Below are positions 5,010 to 34,584 of a DNA stretch of 34,584 nucleotides, one piece after another. The stretch lies in contig NW_021831663.1 of the NCBI RefSeq assembly GCF_006345805.1, positions 1 through 34,584 on the forward strand. Direction: 5' to 3'. Below the pieces are notes generated by a model. That model saw only the letters and a list, made by a program, of their open reading frames with translations, was not told the DNA's origin and did not search any database. Position numbers and translations under genes: made by a program. The stretch is from Octopus sinensis. Its lineage: Eukaryota. The number at the start of each line of letters is the position of its first letter. Position 1 is the first letter of the stretch.

Positions 5010-5247
5010 ATCTGCTGCCTACTACCTAGAACTCACATGAGTAAAAAAGAGACAGAGACAGATAGAAAAAAAGAAAATGTCCCTTACATTTGAAAACTAT
5101 GGAAATATATTTTAAAAGATTTCACTTAATTTTTCCACAATTTAATTGTTTTCCATGCTTTACTCTGGAGAAGTCGCAAAAACTGAAACTGGTACTAAAA
5201 TGTTCTTCCTGATAAAATTATTTTAGCATTTTCTTCCTTGTCTTATT

Positions 5248-5255
<8 letters not shown>
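5010..5255 (+). mobile_element. PLE-type 3' end fragment with a decayed minimal hammerhead, ending in (TA)n
   Basis: Homologous to 18888-19207 (ctacc.agaactcaca; ctggaga-agtc..aact-gaaa-ctgg-ta). Confidence 0.55.
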
Positions 5256-5314
<59 letters not shown>

Positions 5315-5319
<5 letters not shown>

Positions 5320-6076
5320 CTATAAATACAGTTTACATTAAAACACATACGAGGCATCCATCATAGGAATCCTTGCACGCTAGAAAGAACAGTTAAATTA
5401 AAAACTACTATTAAGGATATTTTTAATTCCCTTCGAAGTTTGGAGTTTAACTGCTCTTTCTAGCGTGCAAAGAGTCCTATGATGGATGTCTCTTATGTGT
5501 TTAAATGTACACTGTATTTATATGAATAATATATAGTCTATTGACTAAATTGTTTTACACGCCAGGCCACTGGAAATAGAAATTTCTAATATTTCTTATT
5601 ACCCTTGATATTAATTATTGATAATTTTTCCTGGATAATTTTCGAATTGAAAAGCCGGCATTATTATTTACTGCCGGCAAGGAGCTTCCATTGCGCGGTA
5701 GATTAAAAAAATTAGAATGTATAAGCACGGGGCATATACTGGATTGCCCCGTGCATATATATTTAATCTAGGTGTACCTGCTGAAGAAGACTTTGCCTAC
5801 AAATTATTATATTTGCTAAAATAAATCTAAAAACATGGTCCAGGAGTTAGATGGTAAATGTTTTCATTTTTCATTCCATTCTAAATGTTATCCCTAATAG
5901 TGGTTTGGAATTTAACTGTTCCTTCTAGCATGCAAGGAGTCCTATGATGGATGCCTCTTTTGAGTTTAAATGTACACTGTATTTATATGAATAACATATA
6001 GTCTATTGACTAAATTTTTTTACACGCTAGGCAATTGGTAGTAGAAATATTTAATATTTCTTATTACCCTTGATAT

Positions 6077-6078
<2 letters not shown>
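5315..6078 (+). mobile_element. Non-coding mini-PLE/retrozyme-like element between (TA)n tracts
   Basis: Direct repeats 5438-5613 and 5903-6078 (period 465); inverted copy 5315-5419 of ~5889-5993; hammerhead-like core in between. Confidence 0.75.
5777..5844 (+). ncRNA. Degenerate type I hammerhead ribozyme
   Basis: cctg-CTGAAGA-aga...tct-aAAA-acatgg-TC-cagg; stem I cctg/cagg is perfect; the catalytic G of GAAA is mutated to A. Confidence 0.6.
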
Positions 6079-6107
<29 letters not shown>

Positions 6108-6161
6108 TATATATATTATATATAATATATATGTATTATATATCTATATATATATATGTAT

Positions 6162-6230
<69 letters not shown>

Positions 6231-14402: not shown

Positions 14403-14457
14403 TTAGTGTAGGAAGAAATGGAGCTGAACGAAGATTTAACAAAATTCCTTTTTATTA

Positions 14458-14541
14458 TTTTCTACATATGTTTCAAAGGCTGCAAAGTCCCTAATTCGGA
14501 TTGAATAAGGAGACCATTTTGCAGCCTTCTCTTCAGGAAAA
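14458..14541 (-). ncRNA. Type I hammerhead ribozyme, intact core
   Basis: Reverse complement of the ribozyme at 14728-14810. Confidence 0.85.
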
Positions 14542-14727: not shown

Positions 14728-14810
14728 TTTTCCTGAAGAGAAGGCTGCAAAATGGTCCCTTATTCAATCCGAATTAGGGACTTTGCAGCCTTTGAAACAT
14801 ATGTAGAAAA
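14728..14810 (+). ncRNA. Type I hammerhead ribozyme, intact core
   Basis: ttttc-CTGAAGA-gaaggctgcaaa..gtccct..agggac-tttgcagccttt-GAAA-catatg-TA-gaaaa; stem I, a long stem II and a palindromic stem III all pair. Confidence 0.9.
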
Positions 14811-15012
14811 TAATAAAAAGGAATTTTGTAAATCTTCGTTCAGCTCCATTTCTTCCTACACTAAATATATAAAACTTCAATTTCCGCACTAAGGCACGGT
14901 TTGAGACCCATGGTCGTAACCTCAACCGTGATGTTTCGTTGTGATTTTTGCTACCCAGGTATCGGTTATCATTTGAATAATCCGTAACAAGATAATTCAT
15001 TTATCCATTTCA

Positions 15013-15043
<31 letters not shown>

Positions 15044-15505: not shown

Positions 15506-18500
15506 AGGCATATAAAATATATGATATATATCGTGTAAATAAAAATAAAGTTCATCGTTAAGAAATATTATAAAATTATTATTCAAGTAAGAGAAGCCTT
15601 ATAGTTAAAAAAGAGGAAATCATATTTACTTAATTCCTATGGCCATTTCATGGGTGTATTTTATGTTTAAAGCACTAGGGTGCATCAAGATAATACCTCC
15701 TTCGTCAGGGGAAAAATAAAGAAGACAGACATCATCGCGTACCAGGCTAGAACAATGTTCTGTGCTTTCCTATTGAAGCATTCATGCTCGGATAAGCCCA
15801 AAAGAAAGAATTAAAGCAGTAAAAAAAATTTTCTTTTAAAGCAGTAGAGAAATAAGGCGGTAAAAAAAATGGGTGTATTGAAATAAATTAAGTTCAATTA
15901 AATTAAATTGAATTAAATTGAATTAAATTGAATTAAATTGAGCCTCCGTGGTTTAAAACCTGTAAAAGCTAAATTATTTATTTTCTACAACTTATTTTAT
16001 TCCTATAGACTTAAAAAATGGGTGTATTAAATTAAATTAAGTTCAATTAAATTAAATTGAATTAATTGAATTAATTGATCCTCCGTGGTTTCAAATCCTG
16101 TAAAAGCTAAATTATTTATTTTTATTTTCTACAACTTATTTCTATAGACTTTAAGAATGTAGAAGAAAATTTATGGATGCAAAAGGGAATCACGTCCGTA
16201 AATTTATTCAGAACGTGCGGTCCATAACACCTAAGGATGGTAAGTGATTCCCTTTTGCATAGCTTAAACTTGTTAATATTTCTCTTGAAATTTGGGGTTT
16301 TAGAAATAATGGACCATTCTAGATGATAATTCTTATTATTTTTCTTCAAGTTGTGTATATCGGATGCAAGTTAGTTGAGTTACAGTATTTGTCGTTAGCA
16401 AAGGGGCTCATATGTGATCTATATCTCGCCTTAAAGTCTATCGTGCTACCTATATAAAATTTATTTAGCTTATCTTCGTCCTTCACTATACATTTATATA
16501 TAATGTTGGTAACTAGACAGAACCATCTAAAGGACATAATTCGGGTTTTCTACAGTTAGATGTCTTTCCGGGCCTTTCCTAGTTTATTCCTATTGTTACC
16601 TTTACTTATTGTATCTCCAGTTCCAGACGGGTTCCCACCTTCATTCCATCAAATCTTCCCTTATTACATGGGTTCGATATACCCGGTAAAGGCAGACTGC
16701 TTGTAGCATTGGCATTAGGCGTTACAAGATTATCATACGCAGTTCCTGTGTCATCCTCAAAGGAACTTTTTCCGCTATTCCACCCAGCAAGCTTGCTTCT
16801 ATTGATTGAAGCAATGATGGAAGCAAAGTTAGGCATTACAGAGTAAGAGAATTTTATCGTTGACTTGTTGCAGATGCTATAGTATTTTGATTCTTTGGGA
16901 AGTTCTCCTTATGAATTCTAAAAAACCTTTTTGCTAAATTCCTTTCTCTAAGGGAAAAGGGGGGCGAACCAAACACTTCCCTTATTCTAGACCGTGAACC
17001 TCCCGTTTTGTTTAACTCCTTATCAAAATTACTAATTTTCTTATACCTGTACCTATTACCTATTGCGAGTATCCCTAAACATATTACTATTCAAAGGCCT
17101 GTTATTATTGCAGTTGGGGGGGGTTCTCTGCATTATTTATAGTATTTGTAATGTGCTTAATTGGCAAACCAGCCATTTTGTTTTTGAGTCTAGTATTAAG
17201 GATATAAATATTTTAGATTTGAAACAACTTAAACTTAGGGTATTATTATACCACCGGTGCATGCTGTTCAAAAATCTTTTCATTCGCAGATAAGTTAGAT
17301 ATTCTAGTTGAAATCGCAGTAATGATGCGGTCTATTGTGGATTTGGGGGTTGGATGATACATTATATATTGATTTATTAGGCTTAGGAAGGGATAATAGA
17401 GACCGGTATTTAGACTCAAGGTAACATCCAAAAAGTTTACCACCCTAGAGTTAATGTCGAAGATGATGTTAAGATTTAAAAAATCCCTCAAGAAGCTTCT
17501 CAGCGACTTCTTTAATCTGTTTTTCCGTCTTAGAGAGGCCCAGCACGGCAAAGAGGGCATCATCCCTTATAATCCACCAGTAAGATTAGGGAAGCTTTTC
17601 TTAATTCCCGAGAGAGATATAGGCCAACTAGGTCTGTAACCTGTGCAGAGTCTGATGACTCCATGGTTGTATCAAAAAATTTGTTGGGTCGGCTCTCTGC
17701 CAGTCACTCTCGTTATAGGAGATAAGTGTTTCTCTTGCCGCCAAAATTACCCCTATATCCGACTTAGGTATATCTACAAACCTTCTTGCAAATATTAAGG
17801 CTTTGTTTAACAAGATAGGGCTTATAGAGCTATAGTAATTCGAAATGTCGAATTGTATGAAATTGAGCTTAGGTTTCTTTGAGAGAGTCAAAACCAAAGT
17901 ATCACATCCTCAGTTCCTTTCCATAAGGGAGGTTGGACCTTTTCCCTCACAATTGGGATAATACCATCGATAATAAGTTTGCTGATTCTGCCCAAATCAG
18001 ACTTTGTCGGACATATCAATCTAATCGAAGGATTAGATAAAAATCAGACTATGGTCCTTCAATAAAGCATGGGGAGTATTTGGAGCATAAGGTTGGTTCT
18101 ATCAAGCAGGCCCAAACCAGAGATTATTTCCAATGGTTAGTATTAATCTTATTTATAGCATTTTTACTGCTTGTTTATAGCCTGAGTTTAGTTCCTTCAA
18201 TATCAAGTCGTTATACAAATTTGGTGGTACAGAGTAAATATTCCCGGTTTTATCAGACAATACATGTAGGTCAGGAGATGATTTCATGGACGATATCTTC
18301 TGAGATAGCAGCTTCTGGAAGGGATTGGTGTATTTTGAAAATTTCAAACGCTTAATTAAGTTCATCAGGTCCTGTTCAAACTTGGCAAGAGCTGGGTTGG
18401 ACGGAGGGTTTCTATAGGTTTTAAGCTTATATGCTTGTACAGATGAATTATGTTCCATCTTGCGGGATGTTTATATGTATATTCTATGATTAAATGTTCG

Positions 18501-18558
18501 AATTATGAATTGTTATGCGGATGACCTTGCATTTGTTTGTTCTATAACCTAGTTTGAT
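15182..18558 (-). mobile_element. Naiad-type Penelope-like element A, copy 1 (RT + GIY-YIG, frameshifted)
   Basis: SDKTGN, FIQFDISNYYSSI, VVNFLDVT and IIYKC..FYIGST motifs; inverted terminal arms 15182-15326 / 18425-18558; extra ~140-bp tandem duplication at 15864-16152. Confidence 0.92.
15634..15713 (-). ncRNA. Hammerhead ribozyme in the 3' UTR of element A1
   Basis: ttccc-CTGACGA-long stem II-GAAA-tggcca-TA-ggaa; base of stem II imperfect. Confidence 0.7.
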
Positions 18559-18615
18559 TATATTATATATATATATATTATATATTATATATTATATATA
18601 TATATATATTATATA

Positions 18616-18887: not shown

Positions 18888-19207
18888 TCCCGATTCAAAA
18901 TACGACCATCAGGGCATTCCCAGATTCTCCCACCCCCTTACCTCATCAGCCTTCTACTACTACCCTACCAAGAACTCACAACGACCTCCAACACACAAGT
19001 GCAAACAAGGGAGTCAGAGAAATGCAGAATGCTACTTATATCTGAACACTACTATAGAAATATTCCTTTAAAAAAACTTTTCTTCTATTTTTCTAAATTT
19101 AATAATTTAATCGTTACAGTTGAAAAGGTCTCAAAATGACCGAAACCGGTACTGAAATGTTCACTATAAAATTATTTTACCATTTTCTATTTTTGACTTG
19201 TTTTTTC
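18888..19207 (+). mobile_element. PLE 3' fragment with a degenerate minimal hammerhead (~19117-19154)
   Basis: cag-tTGAAaA-ggtc..gacc-GAAA-ccgg-TA-ctg; flanked by (TA)n on both sides. Confidence 0.65.
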
Positions 19208-19224
19208 ATATATATATATATATA

Positions 19225-19347
19225 TATATTAATTATCTTTTTTTAATAATTTCGATATATATTTAAATAATTAAATAATTAATCTTATGTATTGGCTTAA
19301 GTTTTTCATTGTATGATTTGCCTAATAGTGGTTTTTAATCTCTAATT

Positions 19348-19391
<44 letters not shown>

Positions 19392-21936: not shown

Positions 21937-24902
21937 AGGCATATAAAAAACATATGATATATATCGTGTAAATAAAATAAAAGTTCATCGTTAAGAAATA
22001 TTATAAAATTATTATTCAAGTAAGAAGCCTTATAGTTAAAAAAGAGGAAATCATATTTACTTAATTCCTATGGCCATTTCATGGGTGTATTATTATGTTT
22101 AAAGCACTAGGGTGCATCAAGATGGTACCTCCTTCGTCAGGGGAAAAATAAAGAAAGACAGGCATCATCGCGTACCAGGCTAGAACAATGTTCTGTGCTT
22201 TCCTATTGAAGCATTCATGCTCGGATAAGCTCAAAAGAAAGAATTAAAGCAGTAAAAAAAATTTTCTTTTAAAGCAGGAGAGAAATAAGGCGGTAAAAAA
22301 AATGGGTGTATTGAAATAAATTAAGTTCAATTAAATTAAATTGAATTAAATTGAATTAAATTGAATTAAATTGAGCCTCCGTGGTTTCAAATCCTGTAAA
22401 AGCTAAATTATTTATTTTTTATTTTCTACAACTTATTTCTATAGACTTTTAAGAATGTAGAAGAAAATTTATGGATGCAAAAGTGAATCACGTCCGTAAA
22501 TTTATTCAGAATGTGCGGTCCATAACACCTAAGGATGGTAAGTGATTCCCTTTTGCATAGCTTAAACTTGTTAATATTTCTCTTGAAATTTGGGGTTTTA
22601 GAAATAATGGACCATTCTAGATGATAATTCTTATTATTTTTCTTCAAGTTGTGTATATCGGATGGAAGTGTAGTTGAGTTACAGTATTTGTCGTTAGCAA
22701 AGGGGCTCATATGTGATCTATATCTCGCCTAAAAGTCTATCGTGCTACCTATATAAAATTTATTTAGCTTATCTTCGTCCTTCACTATACATTTATATAT
22801 AATGTTGGTAACTAGACAGAAACCATCTAAAGGACATAATTCGGGTTTTCTACAGTTAGATGTCTTTCCGGGGCCTTTCCTAGTTTTATTCCTATTGTTA
22901 CCTTCACTTATTGTATCTCCAGTTCCAGACGGGTTTCCCTCCTTCATTCCATTAAATCTTCCCTTATTACATGGGTTCGATATACCCGGTAAAGGCAGAC
23001 TGCATGTAGCATTGGCATTAGGCGTTACAAGATTATCATACGCAGTTCCTGGGTCATCCTCAAAGGAACTTTTTCCGCTATTCCACCCAGCAAGCTTGCT
23101 TCTATTGATTGAAGCAATGATGGAAGCAAAGTTAGGCATTACAGAGTAAGAGAATTTTATCGTTGACTTGTTGCAGATGCTATAGTATTTATGATTCTTT
23201 GGGAAGTTCTCCTTATGAATTCTAAAAAACCTTTTTGCTAAATTCCTTTCTCTAAGGGAGAAAGGGGGAGCGAACCAAACAACTTCCCTTATTCTAGATC
23301 GTGAACCTCCCGTTTTGTTTAACTCCTTATCAAAATTACTAATTTTCTTATACCTGTACCTATTACCTATTGCGAGTATTTCTAAACATATTACTATTCA
23401 AAGGCCTGTTATTATTGCAGTTGGGGGGTTCTCTGCATTTATTTATAGTATTTGTAACGTGCTTAATTGGCAAACCAGCCATTTTGTTTTTGAGTCTAGT
23501 ATTAAGGATATAAAATATTTTAGATTTGAAACCACTTAAACTTAGGGTATTATTATACACCGGTGCATGCTGTTCAAAAATCTTTTCATTCGCAGATAAA
23601 TTAGATATTCTAGTTGAAATCGCAGTAATGATGCTGTCTATTGTGGATTTTGGGGGATTGGATGATACATTAATATATTGATTTATTAGGCTTACGAAAG
23701 GGATAATAGAGACCGGTATTTAGACTCAAGGTAACATCCAAAAAGTTTACCACCCTAGAGTTAATGTCGAAGATGATGTTAAGATTTAAAAAATCCCTCA
23801 AGAAGCTTCTCAGCGACTTCTTTAATCTGTTTAATTCCGTCTTAGAGAGGCCCAGCACGGCAAAGAGGGCATCATCCCTATATAATCCACCAGTAAGATT
23901 AGGGAAGCTTTTCATAATTCCCGAGAGTAGATATAGGCCAACTAGGTCTGTAACCTGTGCAGAGTCTGATGACTCCATGGTTGTATCAAAGAATTTGTTG
24001 GGTCGGCTCTCTGCCAGTCACTCTCGTTATAGGAGATAAGTGTTTCTCTTGCCGCCAAAATTACCCCTATATCCGACTTAGGTATCTCTACAAACCTTCT
24101 TGCAAATATTAAGGCTTTGTTTAACAAGATAGGGCTTATAGAGCTATAGTAATTCGAAATGTCGAATTGTATGAAATTGAGCTTAGGTTTCTTTGAGAGA
24201 GTCAACCAAAGTATCACATCCTCAGTTTCTCTCCATAAGGGAGGTTGGACCTTTTCCCTCACAATTGGGATAATACCATCGATAATAAGTTTGCTGATTC
24301 TGCCAAATCAGACTTTGTCGGACACAGCAATCTAATCGAAGGATTAGATAAAAAATCAGACTTATGGTCCTTCAATAAAGCATGGGGAGTATTTGGAGCA
24401 TAAGGTTGGGTTCTATCAAGCAGGCCCAAACCAGAGATTATTTCCAAATGGTTAGCATTAATCTTATTTATAGCATTTTTTCTTGCATGTTTATAGCCTG
24501 AGTTTAGTTCCTTCAATATCAAGTCGTTATACAAATTTGGTGGTACAGAGTAAATATTCCCGGTTTTATCAGACATGACATGTAGGTCAGGAGATGATTT
24601 TATGGACGATATCTTCTGAGATAGCAGCTTCTGGAAGGGATTGGTGTATTTTGAAAATTTCAAACGCTTAATTAAGTTCATCAGGTCCTGTTCAAACTTG
24701 GCAAGAGCTGGGTTGGACGGAGGGTTTCTATAGGTTTTAAGGTGAAAATTATTTTTCTCGCTTATATGCTTATATGCTTGTACAGATGAATTATGTTCCA
24801 TCTTGCTGGATGTTTATATGTATATTCTATGATTAAATGTTCGAATTATGAATTGTTATGCGGATGACCTTGCATTTGTTTGTTCTATAAGCTTAGTTTG
24901 AT
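21594..24902 (-). mobile_element. Naiad-type Penelope-like element A, copy 2
   Basis: ORF fragments 24801 to 22426: LKDHK..IRLLCPTKSD, FDIS, SDSAQVTDLVGLY, GLYRDD, FLDVT, NCR..CPLDGFC, FYIG; 142-bp inverted arms 21594-21735 / 24761-24902. Confidence 0.95.
22065..22145 (-). ncRNA. Hammerhead ribozyme in the 3' UTR of element A2
   Basis: CTGACGA ... GAAA-tggcca-TA-gg, as in A1. Confidence 0.7.
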
Positions 24903-24937
<35 letters not shown>

Positions 24938-25268: not shown

Positions 25269-25486
25269 ACACATATACATACACACATACACATTCATGA
25301 ACCCCACTAGAGTGGGAAAAAGCGCTAATGATTTAAGTGATATGATATATATATATATATAAAAATGTAATATATAAATAAATATCTATAAATATAAACT
25401 ATCCGATCTTCTGATTACCTCATTTCTTCTAATACATAATACCCGTACATCATCTCCAAACCTTCCAATATATATATATATATATA

Positions 25487-25647
25487 TATTATGTGAAATA
25501 GAAAGATGAATAATCTTGTCGTAGATTAATCAAAAGTTTAACCGATACCTTAGTAGCAAAAATCACAGCAGTGAACAGCACTAAGGTATCGGTTAAACTT
25601 TTGATTAATCTACGACAAGATTATTCATCTTTCTATTTCACATAATA
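25487..25647. repeat. Perfect 68-bp inverted repeat with a 25-nt loop at the 5' end of element B
   Basis: 25487-25554 is the reverse complement of 25580-25647. Confidence 0.95.
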
Positions 25648-28600
25648 CATACCGCTTCGTCAGAAACTGCTACTTTAACCGACGCCAATAATGGAGTTGT
25701 TCGAGATTGATGCGTCCCTTAAGGATATTCCTATACCACCCAAAGATGCCTTCCTTAAGGAGTTGGTTTGTAAAACCAACGCATTCATAAACCGGATAAG
25801 ATGGCTCATTTTCTTCCACGAGAACGAAGATCTAAAATCGAACCGGACAACTGCATCGTCCGAATACGGCCGGCTTTTTAAAACATTGGATACGCCGCCA
25901 CCGAACCCAAGACTGAAGAAGTTTGAGGACGACTTGTGGGACATAGTTAGAAAGATTAAGTTCAGGAAGTCACCCAGGAGAATGCCCACCTCAGATACCT
26001 AGATAAAATTACCAAGGACATTAATAGAACGGACGGAGTCCTGTCCAGTCCGACAAGACCAGGAACACATACAAGATGCCCATTAAGCAGTACCTAGATT
26101 TACTCGGTAAAGAGATCAAGAAAATTATAGAAAAACCAATTGGAGTACCCTGAGGAAGGTAAACTTGGAAATTAAGGATAAATATTTAAACACCGAATTC
26201 AAATGAGAACTCAGCCGCTTAGCCCCAAGCAACCCAGATTTATAGTGAAGGACCATAAACCCAACTTCCACACCAACCCAGCGCTAAACTCATATGCCCT
26301 GCTAGATCTGATATCGGGATAATCAGTAAGTACATTTTAGATAAATATATCCCTAGTTTAGTAAACAAGCTGAAGCTCAGCCTCTGGCCAACTCCTCGCA
26401 GGTAGTGAAGTGGTTCTCTTCCATCCCCAATAAGAACCGTACTAGGTTCATTCAGTTTGATATCGCCAGCTTCTACCCCTCGATTAACCCTAGTGTGCTA
26501 AATAAGGCCCTCTGGCATGCTCACAACAAGGCAGGCCTCACCAGAGAAGAGATAGATATCATTTTAGTTGCCAGGAAATCGTTTATTAAGTTTGATAATA
26601 AGCTGTGGATCCGTAAGGATACTCCCAATGAATTTGATGTGCCTATGGGTAGTTCGGATAGTGCGCAGATAGCCGATTTGGTCGGAATATATTCTTCTCT
26701 ACGAATTGTCCGATCAATTCCCGGAAATCGCGGGCGGCCTGTATCGTGACGATTGTCTGTTTTACCTGCAAAACACCACGAACAGAATAGTGCAGAAAAC
26801 TAAGAGCAGGTTAGCTAGGTTTTTTAATAGAATGGCATGAGTATAGTTTTTTGATAACGAACTCACAAGGCTAATTTCCTAGACGTTACACTTAACCTTA
26901 ATAGCGACTCATACTGCCCTTACCATAAGCCTTCCACTAATTTGAAGTATGTCAGTGTCTTCTCAAATCATGCCAAAACCGTAACAGACAATTTGGTTAA
27001 AAACATCTCTCTAAGATTGTCTGGCCTGTCCGCCAGTGCCGATATTTTTATGCAGAAAGCGGATTTTTATAACGCCGCACTATCCAAGGCCGGTTATAGG
27101 CAGAAGGTAATTTATATTGATCCGGCCCTTCCGATGCCATCATTCGGTCATCAGGATAGGGCCGTATATAATAACATTAACATTTTAAAAGTAAGACGGG
27201 AGCGCGGCGGATACCGGGGTAGTCGCTCCCGCATTTAATTTAGCGAACAAGGATAATTATCGGTCCGGGAGGTCTTACACTAACCCAAGACCCGTTATTC
27301 ATCCGAGAATCACCCACCCAAATGCGAGAGCTGGCGTCCCGACCCATCACACTGATAGGAATAAGCATATATGGTTTGTAATCCCCTTTGGTAAGCAGAT
27401 TAGAACTAACCTCCCCCTCATGTTTAGACAAGCCATCGCCAATAACTTCCCCAAAATTCCAAATATTACTCCACGGTTAACTCACATAAAGTTAGGATAG
27501 CTTTCTCCAACACTAAAAACCTCCTCGCCAGATAATCGCCTCCCATAATAATAGGCTACTTACTAAGACCCTATCACCTTTTTCCGGAGGCACAGCCTCT
27601 TCCGCTCCCGGTTTAATGCTCAGTAGGAATAATTATAGTAGTAATAATGATATGAGAGCCAGTACAGTGACACATAATCTCAGCTCCAGCCAGGGAGTAC
27701 CCACTAGGGGTATAGTTATAAATAGGGGTGTTGTGGTTGATGGTAACAATGGGAGTAGGGTAGAGAGCCCCTTTATCATCCCCAGCATCATTTCCCGCAA
27801 TAGCAGTACCACGGGCAGTAGCAATGACAGCACTCTGATAGATAGTGGAGAATCAGGGTTATTCCTATAGTTAATAGTGACGTAGTGGAAAATAGAGTAG
27901 TAAGCGGCTGCAGGTCTCGGAACGAATATAGTGACAGGAACGCAGTTCTAATTTCAGAAACCAATCCTAGCAGAGTAAGATTTACGTCGGCGAACTCCAA
28001 GATCAAAACGCCGTCTACCAATGCAAGGTTTACACCGGACTCAGATGCCTTCACTTATATAGGGGCATCATCCTCAAGATTGTCTTTGCGTGTCTCCAAC
28101 CACCATTACGCAACTTTTCGGGACGTGAACAAGCGCCAGACCACGGGACTCAGTAAGCTAATATGGCGACTGAAGGATGCGAACTTAAGCTATAGGCTGG
28201 AATGGTCAATTTTGTCGGTGGCCCTCCCATTTGATAGGGGCAGAAGACAGTGCAACCTTTGTGTCTCCGAACTCTTCCATATTTTGTTTGCCAGAGGCCG
28301 GATGGTAAACGGGCTCTTACAGTCGGCTTTTCGATGCCCCCATTGGCGGCGTTACACTTATCTGGCCTTTAAATAGCGTTTATAAATAAGACCGGCACCC
28401 ATAGCCCTTGGTAACAAATTCTGAAATAGATTTTAAGATATCTACAATTAACCACTGCAAGGGAAATTACTCCTGTAAGACAACGGGGCTTGTTTTTTCA
28501 CAGCGGGGGGTTTCCTTGTCAAGGTAGGCTTAGATGAACACACACACACACACATAAAACATAAAATATATATATAATTTCTTTATTTTTTTTCTTTCTG

Positions 28601-28984
28601 CCACCCAACGGTTATCACGCAGTAGCCACTGACAGCCGAACGATCAAACGCACACACGTACACAAAAATGTTTTCTACCCCTACGCCAACACACACATAT
28701 ATAGAACAGTATACACACACACACACGTCTCTAAGTAGATTTTTTCTCGCCCCTTATAAAACATCCAATATTCTTTAAATAGTCAGAACTTTATTCTCGG
28801 TCACAAAGAACATCTATACACCCTCACCCACATGTTTGACCGATGCCTGACCTGTTGAATCTTCAGCCACCGGTTCTCAACATACACTGATAAACAGTTT
28901 CGCCATGGGCTCTTAGGAGCACAGTTCGATTGTTTTTTTTGCTCTGCCTCTGTTCTGTTTTGTTTTTCCAACGGATTTCCTTTT

Positions 28985-29070
28985 TTCTTCCTGAAGAGAA
29001 GACACAATATGGTCCCATTATTCAATCGGATTTTGGTAATTTGTGCCTTCGAAACACGTGTAGAATGAAA
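28985..29070 (+). ncRNA. Type I hammerhead ribozyme at the 3' end of element B
   Basis: ttc-CTGAAGA-gaagacacaa..ttgtgccttc-GAAA-cacgtg-TA-gaa. Confidence 0.88.
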
Positions 29071-29129
29071 TACAACGATTTCTGTTCAATCTGCGTTCAG
29101 CTCCATTTCTCTTCAATTCACCAATAATG

Positions 29130-29164
<35 letters not shown>

Positions 29165-29172
<8 letters not shown>

Positions 29173-30695
29173 TTATCTTTTTTAATAATTTCGATATATT
29201 TAAATAATATAAATAATTAATCTTATGTATTGGCTTAAGTTTTTCATTGTATGATTTGCCTAATAGTGGTTTTATCTCTAATTAATATATATATATATAT
29301 AATATATATTATATATATATAATATTATATAACATATATGTATAGATAGATAGATTCTGTAAATTTCAATTATATATATATATATATGTACGTATGTATA
29401 TAACAAATGAAAGTATATATGTATATATATGTATATATATATATATAATATTATATACACATACATATACGATATATGTATGTTGTGTATTGTATGTATA
29501 TGTAAGTACGAACATGTGTCTGTGTGTTTTGTACAACAATCACATATACACTAATCCCCGTTTTAAAATTTCATTTCAATTAGGAACGTAATATACATAT
29601 AAGATATATATAATATTATATATATCTATATATATATATATATATTATATATATATATATATATATACGTATATATGATATATATATATTTATATGAGGG
29701 AATATATATATATACATATATATATACATATGTATATATTGTTGTATTTAGGAATTCCCATTTTGCCAGTTTAGCCAATAAAACACACGCATTATATATT
29801 TGGTGTTACTATGCTTCAACGTTATTTATTTTTTACATTCATCTTAATGTTATTTCGGCCAGAGTTCTTTCGTCACACTCCTGTATCCGCATCAGTGGTC
29901 CTTTGCTTTCTTCTTTCTTTTTTGTGTGTCTCTCCATACTAACCGTCAGCCATATTGTATTTCTATTGTATGTGTCTTCATTTAGGCATGTGTATATCCT
30001 ATGAGCATCTATGTTTAGTTAGTGTGTGTGTGGGGGTGATGCCTGTAATATTTGTATCTCCTTTTTTATCTATTTCGTGTAATGCACGCCCGAAAATACA
30101 TAAACCAAACACACCCACACACGGACACACATAGAACCCCTGAAAATACAACACACTCAAACACACACACACACATACATATGCACCTTCACACACTCAT
30201 ACGGTTGCACAGACACACACATACACACAGGCGGACAAGTATAACAACACAAACATACTCAGACAGAGACCATCATATTCACGTACACGCACATAACATC
30301 ACCACCAACACAACACACACAAACATACACTCGAACACACACAGACGCACACATACATGCAAAAAACCATACACACATGCGCACACACAGTACCCTGACA
30401 AATACAAATCACACATACACACGCACAAACGTTCACACATATACACGCACCATCCTGCTAAATATAAACCACACATATACACAGACACCATACACACTAC
30501 ACACTAAACTCTAAGTCCAATAGAAAAAACCAACACACACAAATACAATCATATATATATATACACACCACGCGCGCTCACATTCACTCACAACCGTTTT
30601 GAACTCTAAACCCAGTCCTCTTTTTAAATCATCTAATAAGACGCTTCTGCATCGAAAGACGCACCACAACTGGTCAATAAGTTTCGCACCCGAGT
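29165..30695. repeat. Non-coding block X, copy 2
   Basis: Matches 19225-20576. Confidence 0.93.
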
Positions 30696-32479: not shown

Positions 32480-32824
32480 AATGTAACATATATATATATG
32501 TATATATATATATATTATATATATATATATTATGTATAATATAATATATATATATATATGTAATATTTATATTTAAATTATTAACATATGTATTTTTACC
32601 TTGGGGTTGGCCAGATTGGGGTAATCTCAAGTATAACCAGTCGCAATTGCAAAGATAATCTGGAACTTGACTGAGGAAAGAACCTCCGAATGACCCGTCC
32701 TTATTTCTTTGTACTATCAATATGGATGGTTGTTATAACTTTTTTGTATCATCTAACTGTCTGGATGTTTGCGTTCTTGTCCCATTTTGTATTATATATA
32801 TATATATATATAATATATATATAT

Positions 32825-34370
32825 GGCCGCCCCATCGTCTCTGCCTGTAACTGCCCCAGGAGCTCATCTCTAAATACCTCGACCGTGTCCTTGCCCCCCT
32901 AGTGGCATCTCTTCCCTCCCACATCCACGATACCAACCATGCTCTCCGGCTTTTCAACTCTTTCTCCTCCTCCCGGCTCTTCCAAAATCCTTTTACTATG
33001 GACATCCAAAGCCTCTATACTGTTATCCCTCACCACGAAGGACTGCAGGCCCTTCGACACTTTCTTACCTTCCTTCGCTCTAACCCTGTACCTGACACCT
33101 CCACACTCATTCGTCTGGCCGAACTTGTCCTTACTCAACTGCTTCTCGTTCGCGGGCGAGTTCTACCATCAGGTCTCGGAGTGGCAATGGGAACGCGAAT
33201 GGGCCCCAACTATGCGAACCTGTTCGTTGGCTATGTTGAGGCCCAAATATTCTCCAATTTCACTGGTCCCACTCCTGAACTATATGGTCGTTATATTGAC
33301 GACATTATCGGTGCCACTCACTCTCCTCTCTCCCCCGAAACATCTAGATTCCTTCCTCTCTTTCGTCCAATCTTCCATCCAGCCCTCCACTTCACTTCCA
33401 CTATCTCCAACACCTCTGTCTCCTTCCTCGACATTTCGGTTAGCATTCTTCACTCCACTCTTACCACCTCCATTCACTACAAACACACAGACTCACACTC
33501 ATACCTCAACTTCTCTTCCTCCCACCCAGAACACACCAAGCTTTCCATCCCCTATTCCCATTCCTCCTTCTGTCTACGTAGGCTCTGTAGTGACGACCAT
33601 GACTTTGAGACTCAGTCTCAATGTATGGCTCACCACTTCACCCTAGTGGATACCCCCTCACCACTATCCACACCGCCCTTGCCAAAGCACGGTCCGTGGA
33701 CCGTGTATCTGCTCTCTCTCTCCCCGACCCGCCCTGTAGTCTCCCGCCTCCCTTTTCCCCTCACTTACCACCACCACCACGACCCTACGTCTCCAACGCA
33801 CCATTCTTTCGAGCTTTCGTCATCTCCAGTCCGACCCGTCCACTTCACACCTCTTCCCTAACCGACCCCTCCCTCTCTTTCAAACGAGCCCACACCTTCG
33901 AGACCTTTTGGTCCATAGCTCCTTCCCTGACCCTACCTCCCACCCCGGCTCGTTCCCCTGCTCCCGCCCACGTTGCCGCACTTGCCCTTACTCTCCAACA
34001 CCACCCGCCTCACTAGCACCCACCATCGACCCTATCCCATCATCCACTCCTTCACCTGCACCTCCAGCAATATTATCTATTGCATCTCTTGCTCTCTCTC
34101 TGCAATTCCTTGTACATCGGACAAACGGGACGCCGCTTGGCTGACCGGTTCGCGGAACACCTTCGTGACATCCACCTTGCCGACACGACACACCGGTCTC
34201 ACGCCATTTCCGCTCCACCGGTCACTACTCCTTGCAACACCTATCTGTGTTCGGTTTGTCCTTACACAGAGGCCATCCGGATTCCCGTTTGCGCCGTGAA
34301 CAGGAATTAATCTTCTCTCTTCGCTCTTATACGCCATTTGGTCTCAACTCTCCCCCCCTCCTCATCTAAC
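32825..34370 (+). mobile_element. 5'-truncated Neptune-type Penelope-like element (RT + GIY-YIG, frameshifted)
   Basis: GRPIVS, TMDIQSLYTVIP, GVAMGTRMGPNYANLF, RYIDD, FLD, CSRPRCRTC, FTCTSSNIIYCISC and LYIGQTGR..RFAEH motifs; starts directly at (TA)n. Confidence 0.93.
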
Positions 34371-34584
34371 CCCCCTCTCCCCCCCTCCTCACCTATCCTT
34401 TATCCCACCGACCCCTACTTCTTCAGTCCTTCATCCTTTCACCCCTACTACCCCTTCCCTTCTTCCTCTTTCTCCCTCCCTCTTCTTCCCCTTCCCTCTG
34501 CTCCCTCACTCCCTCTCTCCCCTCTCCCCCCCCCTTCTCTCTCTCTCCCCTCTCCCTCTTCCCCTTCATCCCCCTCCTCACCTT
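34350..34584 (+). repeat. C/T-rich low-complexity tract, probably the Neptune 3' UTR
   Basis: Almost pure pyrimidine sequence directly after the ORF. Confidence 0.8.

Follow-up and report, generated by a model that had tools for sequence, protein, structure and literature searches.

A dispersed retrozyme-like repeat family with Penelope-type insertion ends in the genome of Octopus sinensis

Results

The element and its locus

We analysed a window of 34,584 nucleotides of Octopus sinensis DNA (assembly GCF_006345805.1, contig NW_021831663.1, positions 1 to 34,584), in which the element under study lies at 5315-6078 and is flanked on both sides by (TA)n runs. Its parts, in window coordinates, are as follows.

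5253..5317, no strand: likely cut target, a (TA)n run on the left side that adjoins the inverted arm at its 3' end
5315..5419, minus strand: inverted arm, unit positions about 452-465 and then 1-91, stopping at 3' site 1
5418..5437, plus strand: where the direct arm truly begins at its 5' side, covering unit positions about 428-447; an 18-nt deletion comes next
5438..5902, plus strand: one full 465-nt unit
5653..5678, plus strand: GC-rich short hairpin, perfect in the window copy only
5715..5764, plus strand: long hairpin, rich in G-U pairs and conserved across subfamilies, in which the longest internal TA run of the unit is buried
5765..5853, plus strand: type I hammerhead, helix II with an extra hairpin in loop II, and helix III; predicted cut after C5840
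5777-5780 with 5841-5844, plus strand: hammerhead helix I; distal part about 5765-5769 with 5849-5853
5781-5787, plus strand: hammerhead core CTGAAGA, intact
5830-5833, plus strand: broken GAAA, reading AAAA
5903..6078, plus strand: second unit, partial (positions 1-176), stopping at 3' site 2
6073..6230, no strand: (TA)n run at the right end

The direct repeat formed by 5438-5613 and 5903-6078 measured 176 nt with a period of 465 nt and 90.3% identity (E = 7e-66), in agreement with an earlier annotation of these letters (hereafter the sequence-only reading). That reading had estimated about 1.4 copies of a 465-nt monomer; the unit length was confirmed and the extent was revised to about 1.45 units, the direct arm running from about 5418 to 6078 and lacking 18 nt between 5437 and 5438. 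The 5' inverted arm that it had noticed was delimited to 105 nt at 5315-5419 (88% identity to 5889-5993, E = 9e-33), and the two ends of the copy were of mixed type, site 1 on the left and site 2 on the right. The absence of an ORF likewise held, with no stop-free frame of 100 aa in the element region and a longest stop-free stretch of 50 aa when the unit was read as a circle.

Folding of the region gave z scores of -6.7 for 5715-5772 and -5.8 for 5640-5780, equalled by 0/200 shuffles. The two hairpins singled out beforehand, gccggca/tgccggc and gcacggggca/tgccccgtgc, were both present, but their perfect pairing proved peculiar to the window copy, most family copies having one mismatch in the former and G-U pairs in the latter. 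In the window element, the occurrence of the repeat, inverted arm, hairpins and hammerhead-like motif goes far beyond chance. This motif (5777-5844), described initially as occurring once per period, is indeed there with an intact CTGAAGA and with GAAA read as AAAA, and the window copy as a whole holds a single hammerhead. Its suspected loss of function was upheld: the core has lost both G12 and C15.2, the latter a second change (to A), and the hammerhead taken alone does not fold as one (z -0.2 in one test and +1.8 in another). With both residues altered, the hammerhead of the window copy is probably inactive, given established hammerhead chemistry, and the copy is probably dead. Rfam hammerhead models gave no match on the window element or on four loci with other family copies, and our own descriptor scan of the window missed the studied copy, as expected with GAAA broken. 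A pairing is possible between positions 5700-5708 and the 5' strand of distal helix I (region 5700-5771); it is present in three of the six circular folds shown, and in such models it could hold the hammerhead shut in a circle.

The same locus was found on a large contig (G000:C14:65311848-65315188), with a unit 98% identical and 96% identity over 3.3 kb, the gaps falling in microsatellites. Given this near-identical counterpart, the window contig may represent a second haplotype or a recent duplication. The studied stretch itself is probably a decayed insertion, inert at its locus.

The repeat family and its hammerhead

A DNA search of the 2.7-Gb genome returned 1614 first-look candidates, of which the best 40 were scored. 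In exact-pattern searches, a 26-mer close to the 3' end was matched 795 times, a 29-mer of the hammerhead 72 times and a 32-mer farther upstream 43 times, with 0 for the reversed-pattern controls; the gradient is rough, the patterns being unequal in length and in the number of subfamilies that they fit. At about 6% divergence, the family probably comprises thousands of copies. We analysed 130 locus records, or 119 after 11 duplicates were dropped (the window among these, its near-copy L002 standing in for it), and an unbiased sample was defined as the 66 loci picked solely by the 3' pattern. At least five subfamilies were distinguished, whose representatives were 71-91% identical and all of which retain a unit of 465-482 nt. 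The median distance of copies from their subfamily majority was 6-10%, so most insertions are old. The copies are mostly dispersed beside TA microsatellites and non-coding; in eight units, GC content was 29-35%, the longest stop-free frame measured 46-94 aa, and each unit contained 7-13 runs of four or more T. These eight units gave no strict match to the Pol III box A or B patterns that a tRNA-derived SINE would carry. The predicted circles of the eight units were 60-65% paired and, in the fold check that had been proposed for the 465-nt circle, beat their shuffles (25 each) with z scores of -1.4 to -8.0. Contigs from four putative RNA runs covered 26-30 of the 30 bins of one locus (L033) at very uneven depth, such contigs carrying no information on ends, strand, level or circularity.

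The GAAA lost from the window copy, whose return in family members had been set beforehand as a check, was carried by 25 of the 31 aligned copies, which had been selected by overall similarity (counted by eye). Among 64 copies that had not been selected by core pattern, 44 carried CTGANGA, 43 combined GAAA with helix III and the cleavage triplet, and 31 passed a pattern requiring both core parts. The family hammerhead is of type I, with a helix I of CCTG/CAGG that includes a bulge and a distal helix, a helix II of 4-5 pairs whose loop bears an extra hairpin, and a short helix III that is wholly or nearly palindromic though variable (CCATTGG, CCATGG, CCAATTGG and CTATGCATAG). The ccatgg stem III expected of a family consensus was recovered in other subfamilies (CCATGG, 10/64), but the subfamily of the window copy has CCATTGG instead (13/64). 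In 26 copies spanning the subfamilies, 87% of hammerhead cells were paired, compared to 27-40% in slid-partner controls, and two-sided changes were counted in 47 cells versus 14.8 in shuffles (0/500), with changes on both sides in all 5/5 pairs of helix II; the shuffle ignores relatedness, which inflates such counts, and the changes do run between subfamilies. An intact copy (L048) folds into helices I and II and the loop hairpin, whereas the window copy does not. Pair 10.1-11.1 was often non-standard (9/22 cells) and some subfamilies carry U at C3, both of which may lower activity. Eight arms in the 119 loci span two hammerhead regions, and the window copy has one hammerhead, broken, while the active-locus definition of Li et al. 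(bioRxiv 10.64898/2026.07.22.740005), in its accessible text, asks for two consecutive units with complete hammerheads. According to the same text, cleavage was seen in only 1/9 predicted frog retrozymes, and in the accessible portion of PMC7229834 axolotl hammerheads with a short palindromic helix III act as pairs.

Insertion ends and arms

The 111 arms of the unbiased sample ended at site 1 in 49 cases, at site 2 in 46 and elsewhere in 16, site 1 lying about 160 nt and site 2 about 245 nt after the predicted cut, and thus about 85 nt apart. A TA-type microsatellite adjoined 84 of the 95 ends at these sites, and where target-site duplications were considered, the ends fell within (TA)n. Within the unit, the longest TA run served as an end for only 1/111 arms and is buried in a conserved hairpin, and so TA likeness alone does not determine the ends. 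Tail-out pairs of arms were present at 66 loci. Of these, 19 had an end outside both sites and were excluded from the count, and the remaining 47 pairs comprised 44 that joined site 1 with site 2, 2 with site 1 at both ends and 1 with site 2 at both ends (binomial P = 1e-10); within the unbiased sample, 29/31 tail-out pairs combined the two sites. The arms are 5'-truncated with scattered 5' ends, at lengths of about 0.1-1.8 units; 54/111 cross the cut site and 17/111 exceed one unit. The junction was exact in most aligned copies that cross the cut site. No copy with three clean units and no long array was found among the best 40 candidates per search, and the longest arm measured about 859 nt.

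Non-majority bases were shared within a locus at about three times the expected frequency (99 vs 34 for direct arms, 200 vs 56 for inverted arms), as would follow from one template lineage, an observation equally compatible with a circle and with a tandem transcript. Near the cut site, 18 5' ends fell within 22 positions where about 9.5 were expected (P = 0.009), in a range of positions chosen after inspection. This clustering looked strong at first, became a mild excess under subfamily references, and was set aside as support, because nearby palindromes can draw inversion points. The family thus displays 5' truncation, an inverted 5' arm, a tail at one end and a microsatellite target, and the inverted arm together with two different ends is a Penelope insertion signature.

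Search for a coding parent

Apart from diverged unit sequence and one duplicated locus, nothing was common to the flanks upstream of 120 loci. Among the 60 best long matches drawn from two subfamilies, arms reached up to 858 nt and there was one shared upstream match of 171 nt, and at L274 two same-strand pieces of the unit are split by another repeat. No match better than E = 0.006 was obtained between the unit and 60 Penelope loci, and in 28 comparisons with the ends of two Hydra families none was significant (z -1.6 to 2.6); short motifs common to the unit and Hydra ends by eye were likewise not significant. An ORF with RT and GIY-YIG at a fixed position beside the unit was not found in this sample, which represents a few percent of the family.

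At one locus (L191, 3129-6530) the unit passes into a decayed Hydra ORF with no intervening TA run, and at another (L222, 1113-1260) a unit fragment is joined to the 5' end of the same Hydra family. L191 was rejected as an autonomous parent, since 27/29 other copies of its Hydra family lack the unit and the family has its own, different 3' hammerhead; most of these 29 copies bear their own upstream sequence. On so few cases (two or three), L191 and L222 may be insertions into TA-rich Hydra sequence or template-switch chimeras. In 3/30 loci, these two included (L191 3129-6530, L222 1113-1260 and L209 reversed 981-1260), the unit was joined to or lay just upstream of 5'-truncated copies of the AT-rich Hydra family, and such copies may be template-switch chimeras. 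Two loci with Hydra-like ORFs nearby (L278, L302) were discarded, a TA run or other sequence lying between ORF and unit, as were two with Neptune-like ORFs nearby (L057, L054) that showed no direct join. Further tblastn matches fell at L029, L038, L068, L088, L116 and L294, some of the queries coming from a loose motif filter and being maybe not Penelope proteins.

Penelope-like elements in the genome and window

Two coding families matched the published Hydra motifs (RWK, DKT and CxCX5C) and the alignments in the accessible part of PMC8557442, the RWK-like motif being identified by eye from DNA. These motifs occur in the separate coding families only, the studied element having no ORF. In both families a type I hammerhead of their own, in which loop II is long, is followed by two (TA)n-adjacent ends, and the end spacing of the AT-rich family, judged by eye, is close to that of the studied family. 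Neptune-like loci showed no such hammerhead ends in the portion covered, which did not reach all true ends. A protein search with a Hydra ORF returned 14 relatives, and the Pfam protein-domain searches gave nothing at the cut-off. By anatomy alone, the helper of the studied family is probably of the Hydra clade, although Naiad and other clades also target (TA)n.

The window contains further elements of these kinds. A different repeat, which carries a small hammerhead-like motif, is present in two copies of 74% identity at 5096-5252 (+) and 19051-19230 (+), and both copies end in (TA)n; the second holds a weak Rfam HH9 match (19106-19170, E = 2.1), and the studied element sits in the TA tail of the first. 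Tail-out hammerhead ends with intact cores and 76-80% identity to the GC-richer Hydra family occupy 14412-14539 (-) and 14730-15023 (+), one arm ending at the first TA-adjacent site and the other at the second. The AT-rich Hydra family is represented by solo ends at 19208-19386 and 29130-29312 (76-80% identical to L221 and L213). A near-full, frameshifted Hydra-clade element at 25483-29134 is 98% identical to other genomic copies, and its family, which includes many open frames of 800-920 aa, looks recently active. Another Hydra-like element, whose inverted ends are complex, has two decayed copies of 96% identity at 16013-18585 and 22297-24932 (-). A GC-rich Penelope element at 32824-34584 (+), which we take to be Neptune-like by its motifs, had about 12000 first-look candidates in the genome, with open frames up to 1009 aa.

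Discussion

The explanation that we favour, with a probability of roughly 0.65, is a non-LTR retrozyme that bears a type I hammerhead motif and was copied into TA microsatellites by a Penelope-like enzyme, probably of the Hydra clade, with a predicted circular RNA as template. At the family level several of the features that define non-LTR retrozymes are present: a type I hammerhead per unit, a short non-coding head-to-tail unit with partial repeats up to 1.8 units, GC below 50%, and a predicted circle that is well self-paired. The retrozyme-like character proposed by the sequence-only reading is supported, and neither of the two observations it had named against itself, a consensus lacking GAAA or descent from longer coding elements as their mere 3' end, was made; as to the second, all 17 arms (of 111) that exceed one unit run into more unit.

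In the proposed cycle, a copy with two hammerheads would be transcribed and cut twice, probably by the hammerheads acting as a pair, because helix III is short and self-complementary. The monomer would then be ligated to a circle, as suggested by the mussel, coral and axolotl cases, for whose repeats circles are documented in the accessible part of PMC7229834. A Penelope protein may nick both strands of the (TA)n target, as the end pattern suggests, and reverse transcription would start at the two fixed internal sites, about 160 and 245 nt past the cut, one per target strand. The two cDNAs would run backwards through the cut site to variable lengths and be joined 5' to 5', giving the tail-out arms seen in the genomic copies. 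Both strands are cut and extended by a purified Penelope protein of a lizard, whose two internal starts define the tail (PMC11167929). A circle would most simply account for the continued regeneration of copies beyond unit length despite 5' truncation, and is what we infer here. The partner is assigned by anatomy only, since the unit has no significant similarity to Hydra ends or Penelope loci. The window copy cannot restart this cycle, because it has one hammerhead and that one lacks G12 and C15.2.

Among the alternatives, the same non-autonomous Penelope-driven element could be copied from linear RNA, either by uncut read-through or from cut monomers via template jumps, with no circle. For the lizard protein, hammerhead mutants had no effect on insertion and uncut RNA was the main substrate in vitro, as given in the accessible portion of PMC11167929; no arm here exceeds 1.8 units, the slightly raised number of 5' ends beside the cut site is consistent with some linear cut templates, and genomic copies alone do not tell a circle from an uncut tandem transcript. 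Yet purely linear copying with 5' truncation shortens the element at each generation, whereas five subfamilies retain the whole unit; the junction is exact in most aligned copies crossing the cut site, and the hammerhead has been maintained by compensatory change. We consider such linear copying unlikely.

Still less probable, in our estimate, is that a coding Penelope family with full-length copies outside our sample has the unit as its terminal repeat (pLTR), the copies being its truncated 3' ends. The anatomy is that of pLTRs, the unit is joined to Hydra sequence at L191 and L222, frog retrozymes match pLTRs in the accessible text of bioRxiv 10.64898/2026.07.22.740005, and the sample amounts to a few percent of the family. 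This reading has to contend with the rarity of the unit in the joined Hydra family (absent from 27/29 other copies, with a different 3' hammerhead), with the continuation of 17/17 unbiased arms above one unit into further unit, and with the 120 upstream flanks, which have only diverged unit or one duplicated locus in common. We regard as very improbable a DNA-level repeat (satellite, MITE or Helitron-like) with an incidental hammerhead likeness, which the resemblance of the inverted arms to terminal inverted repeats and the lack of an Rfam hammerhead match would favour, because the 3' ends are fixed, the 5' ends variable and the ends unequal, long arrays are absent, and the helices show both covariation and G-U pairs, the latter being of consequence in RNA on one strand.

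Within the favoured retrozyme reading, one component is put forward tentatively and as somewhat less than an even prospect: that each of the two nicked strands is primed at a fixed site of its own on a single circular RNA, the two sites lying 85 nt apart. If so, the one-sided tail and the inverted arm would be explained in one step, a retrozyme without sequence likeness to its helper would be recognised by position or structure alone, and a Hydra-clade protein with the family RNA would form a ready test pair. The family would then be a fossil record of Penelope enzyme action in cells. The copying enzyme and the circular template of animal retrozymes are proposed and not demonstrated in the accessible parts of the literature cited here. 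The family offers countable genomic evidence for Penelope machinery, with two fixed ends, one per side, in 44/47 insertions, and one genome supplies both natural two-hammerhead copies (L033, L058, L119) and near-full Hydra ORFs for a direct test. With the family old-looking and the window copy inert, it is unlikely to matter to the host.

Comparison with known systems

Our search of the literature on retrozymes and hammerheads in octopus, cephalopods and Penelope elements, with subscription papers and repeat databases mostly outside its scope, found no description of this family. The family itself is thus new, while its kind, the non-LTR retrozymes, is already described in the accessible text of PMC7229834 and bioRxiv 10.64898/2026.07.22.740005. 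Like the metazoan non-LTR retrozymes in the accessible portion of PMC7229834, it has a non-coding low-GC unit, one type I hammerhead and a well-folded predicted circle; the mussel example there is 350-390 nt long, and Penelope-like elements are proposed as the mover. The unit here is longer (465-482 nt versus 150-450 nt) and has an extra hairpin in loop II, and the copies, known from genome sequence alone, are dispersed, 5'-truncated 0.1-1.8-mers with inverted arms, compared to the tandem arrays of that account, whose accessible text does not describe the two-ended anatomy for metazoan retrozymes.

The vertebrate retrozymes in the accessible part of bioRxiv 10.64898/2026.07.22.740005 are likewise rich in monomers and co-occur with Penelope-like elements, and their range of 51-972 nt includes this unit; the groups named there include no mollusc. 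Homology to pLTRs was reported in that text for 24/57 frog families, whereas none was found for this family, and its favoured model of local tandem growth from an inserted pLTR differs from the present case, where copies bear their own insertion ends. Hydra-clade elements such as Hydra-1_Obim share the (TA)n targets, a canonical hammerhead, the inverted 5' arm and the tail at one end, and the Hydra-1_Obim hammerhead (core ctgaaga, helix III acca-a-tggt) is close to that of the family. Unlike these elements, as far as the accessible portion of PMC8557442 describes them, the family has no ORF and its tail measures about 85 nt, not 30-40 nt.

The Poseidon element PAc of Anolis, in the accessible text of PMC11167929, also has two internal RT starts downstream of a hammerhead, cutting and extension of both strands, and AT-rich targets. 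PAc is a coding element with sites 30-40 nt apart, compared to about 85 nt in this non-coding family. In vitro, according to the same text, the two strands did not differ in where PAc started, whereas here the two ends differ in 44/47 insertions. This strict pattern of one site per end is the least expected result of our analysis.
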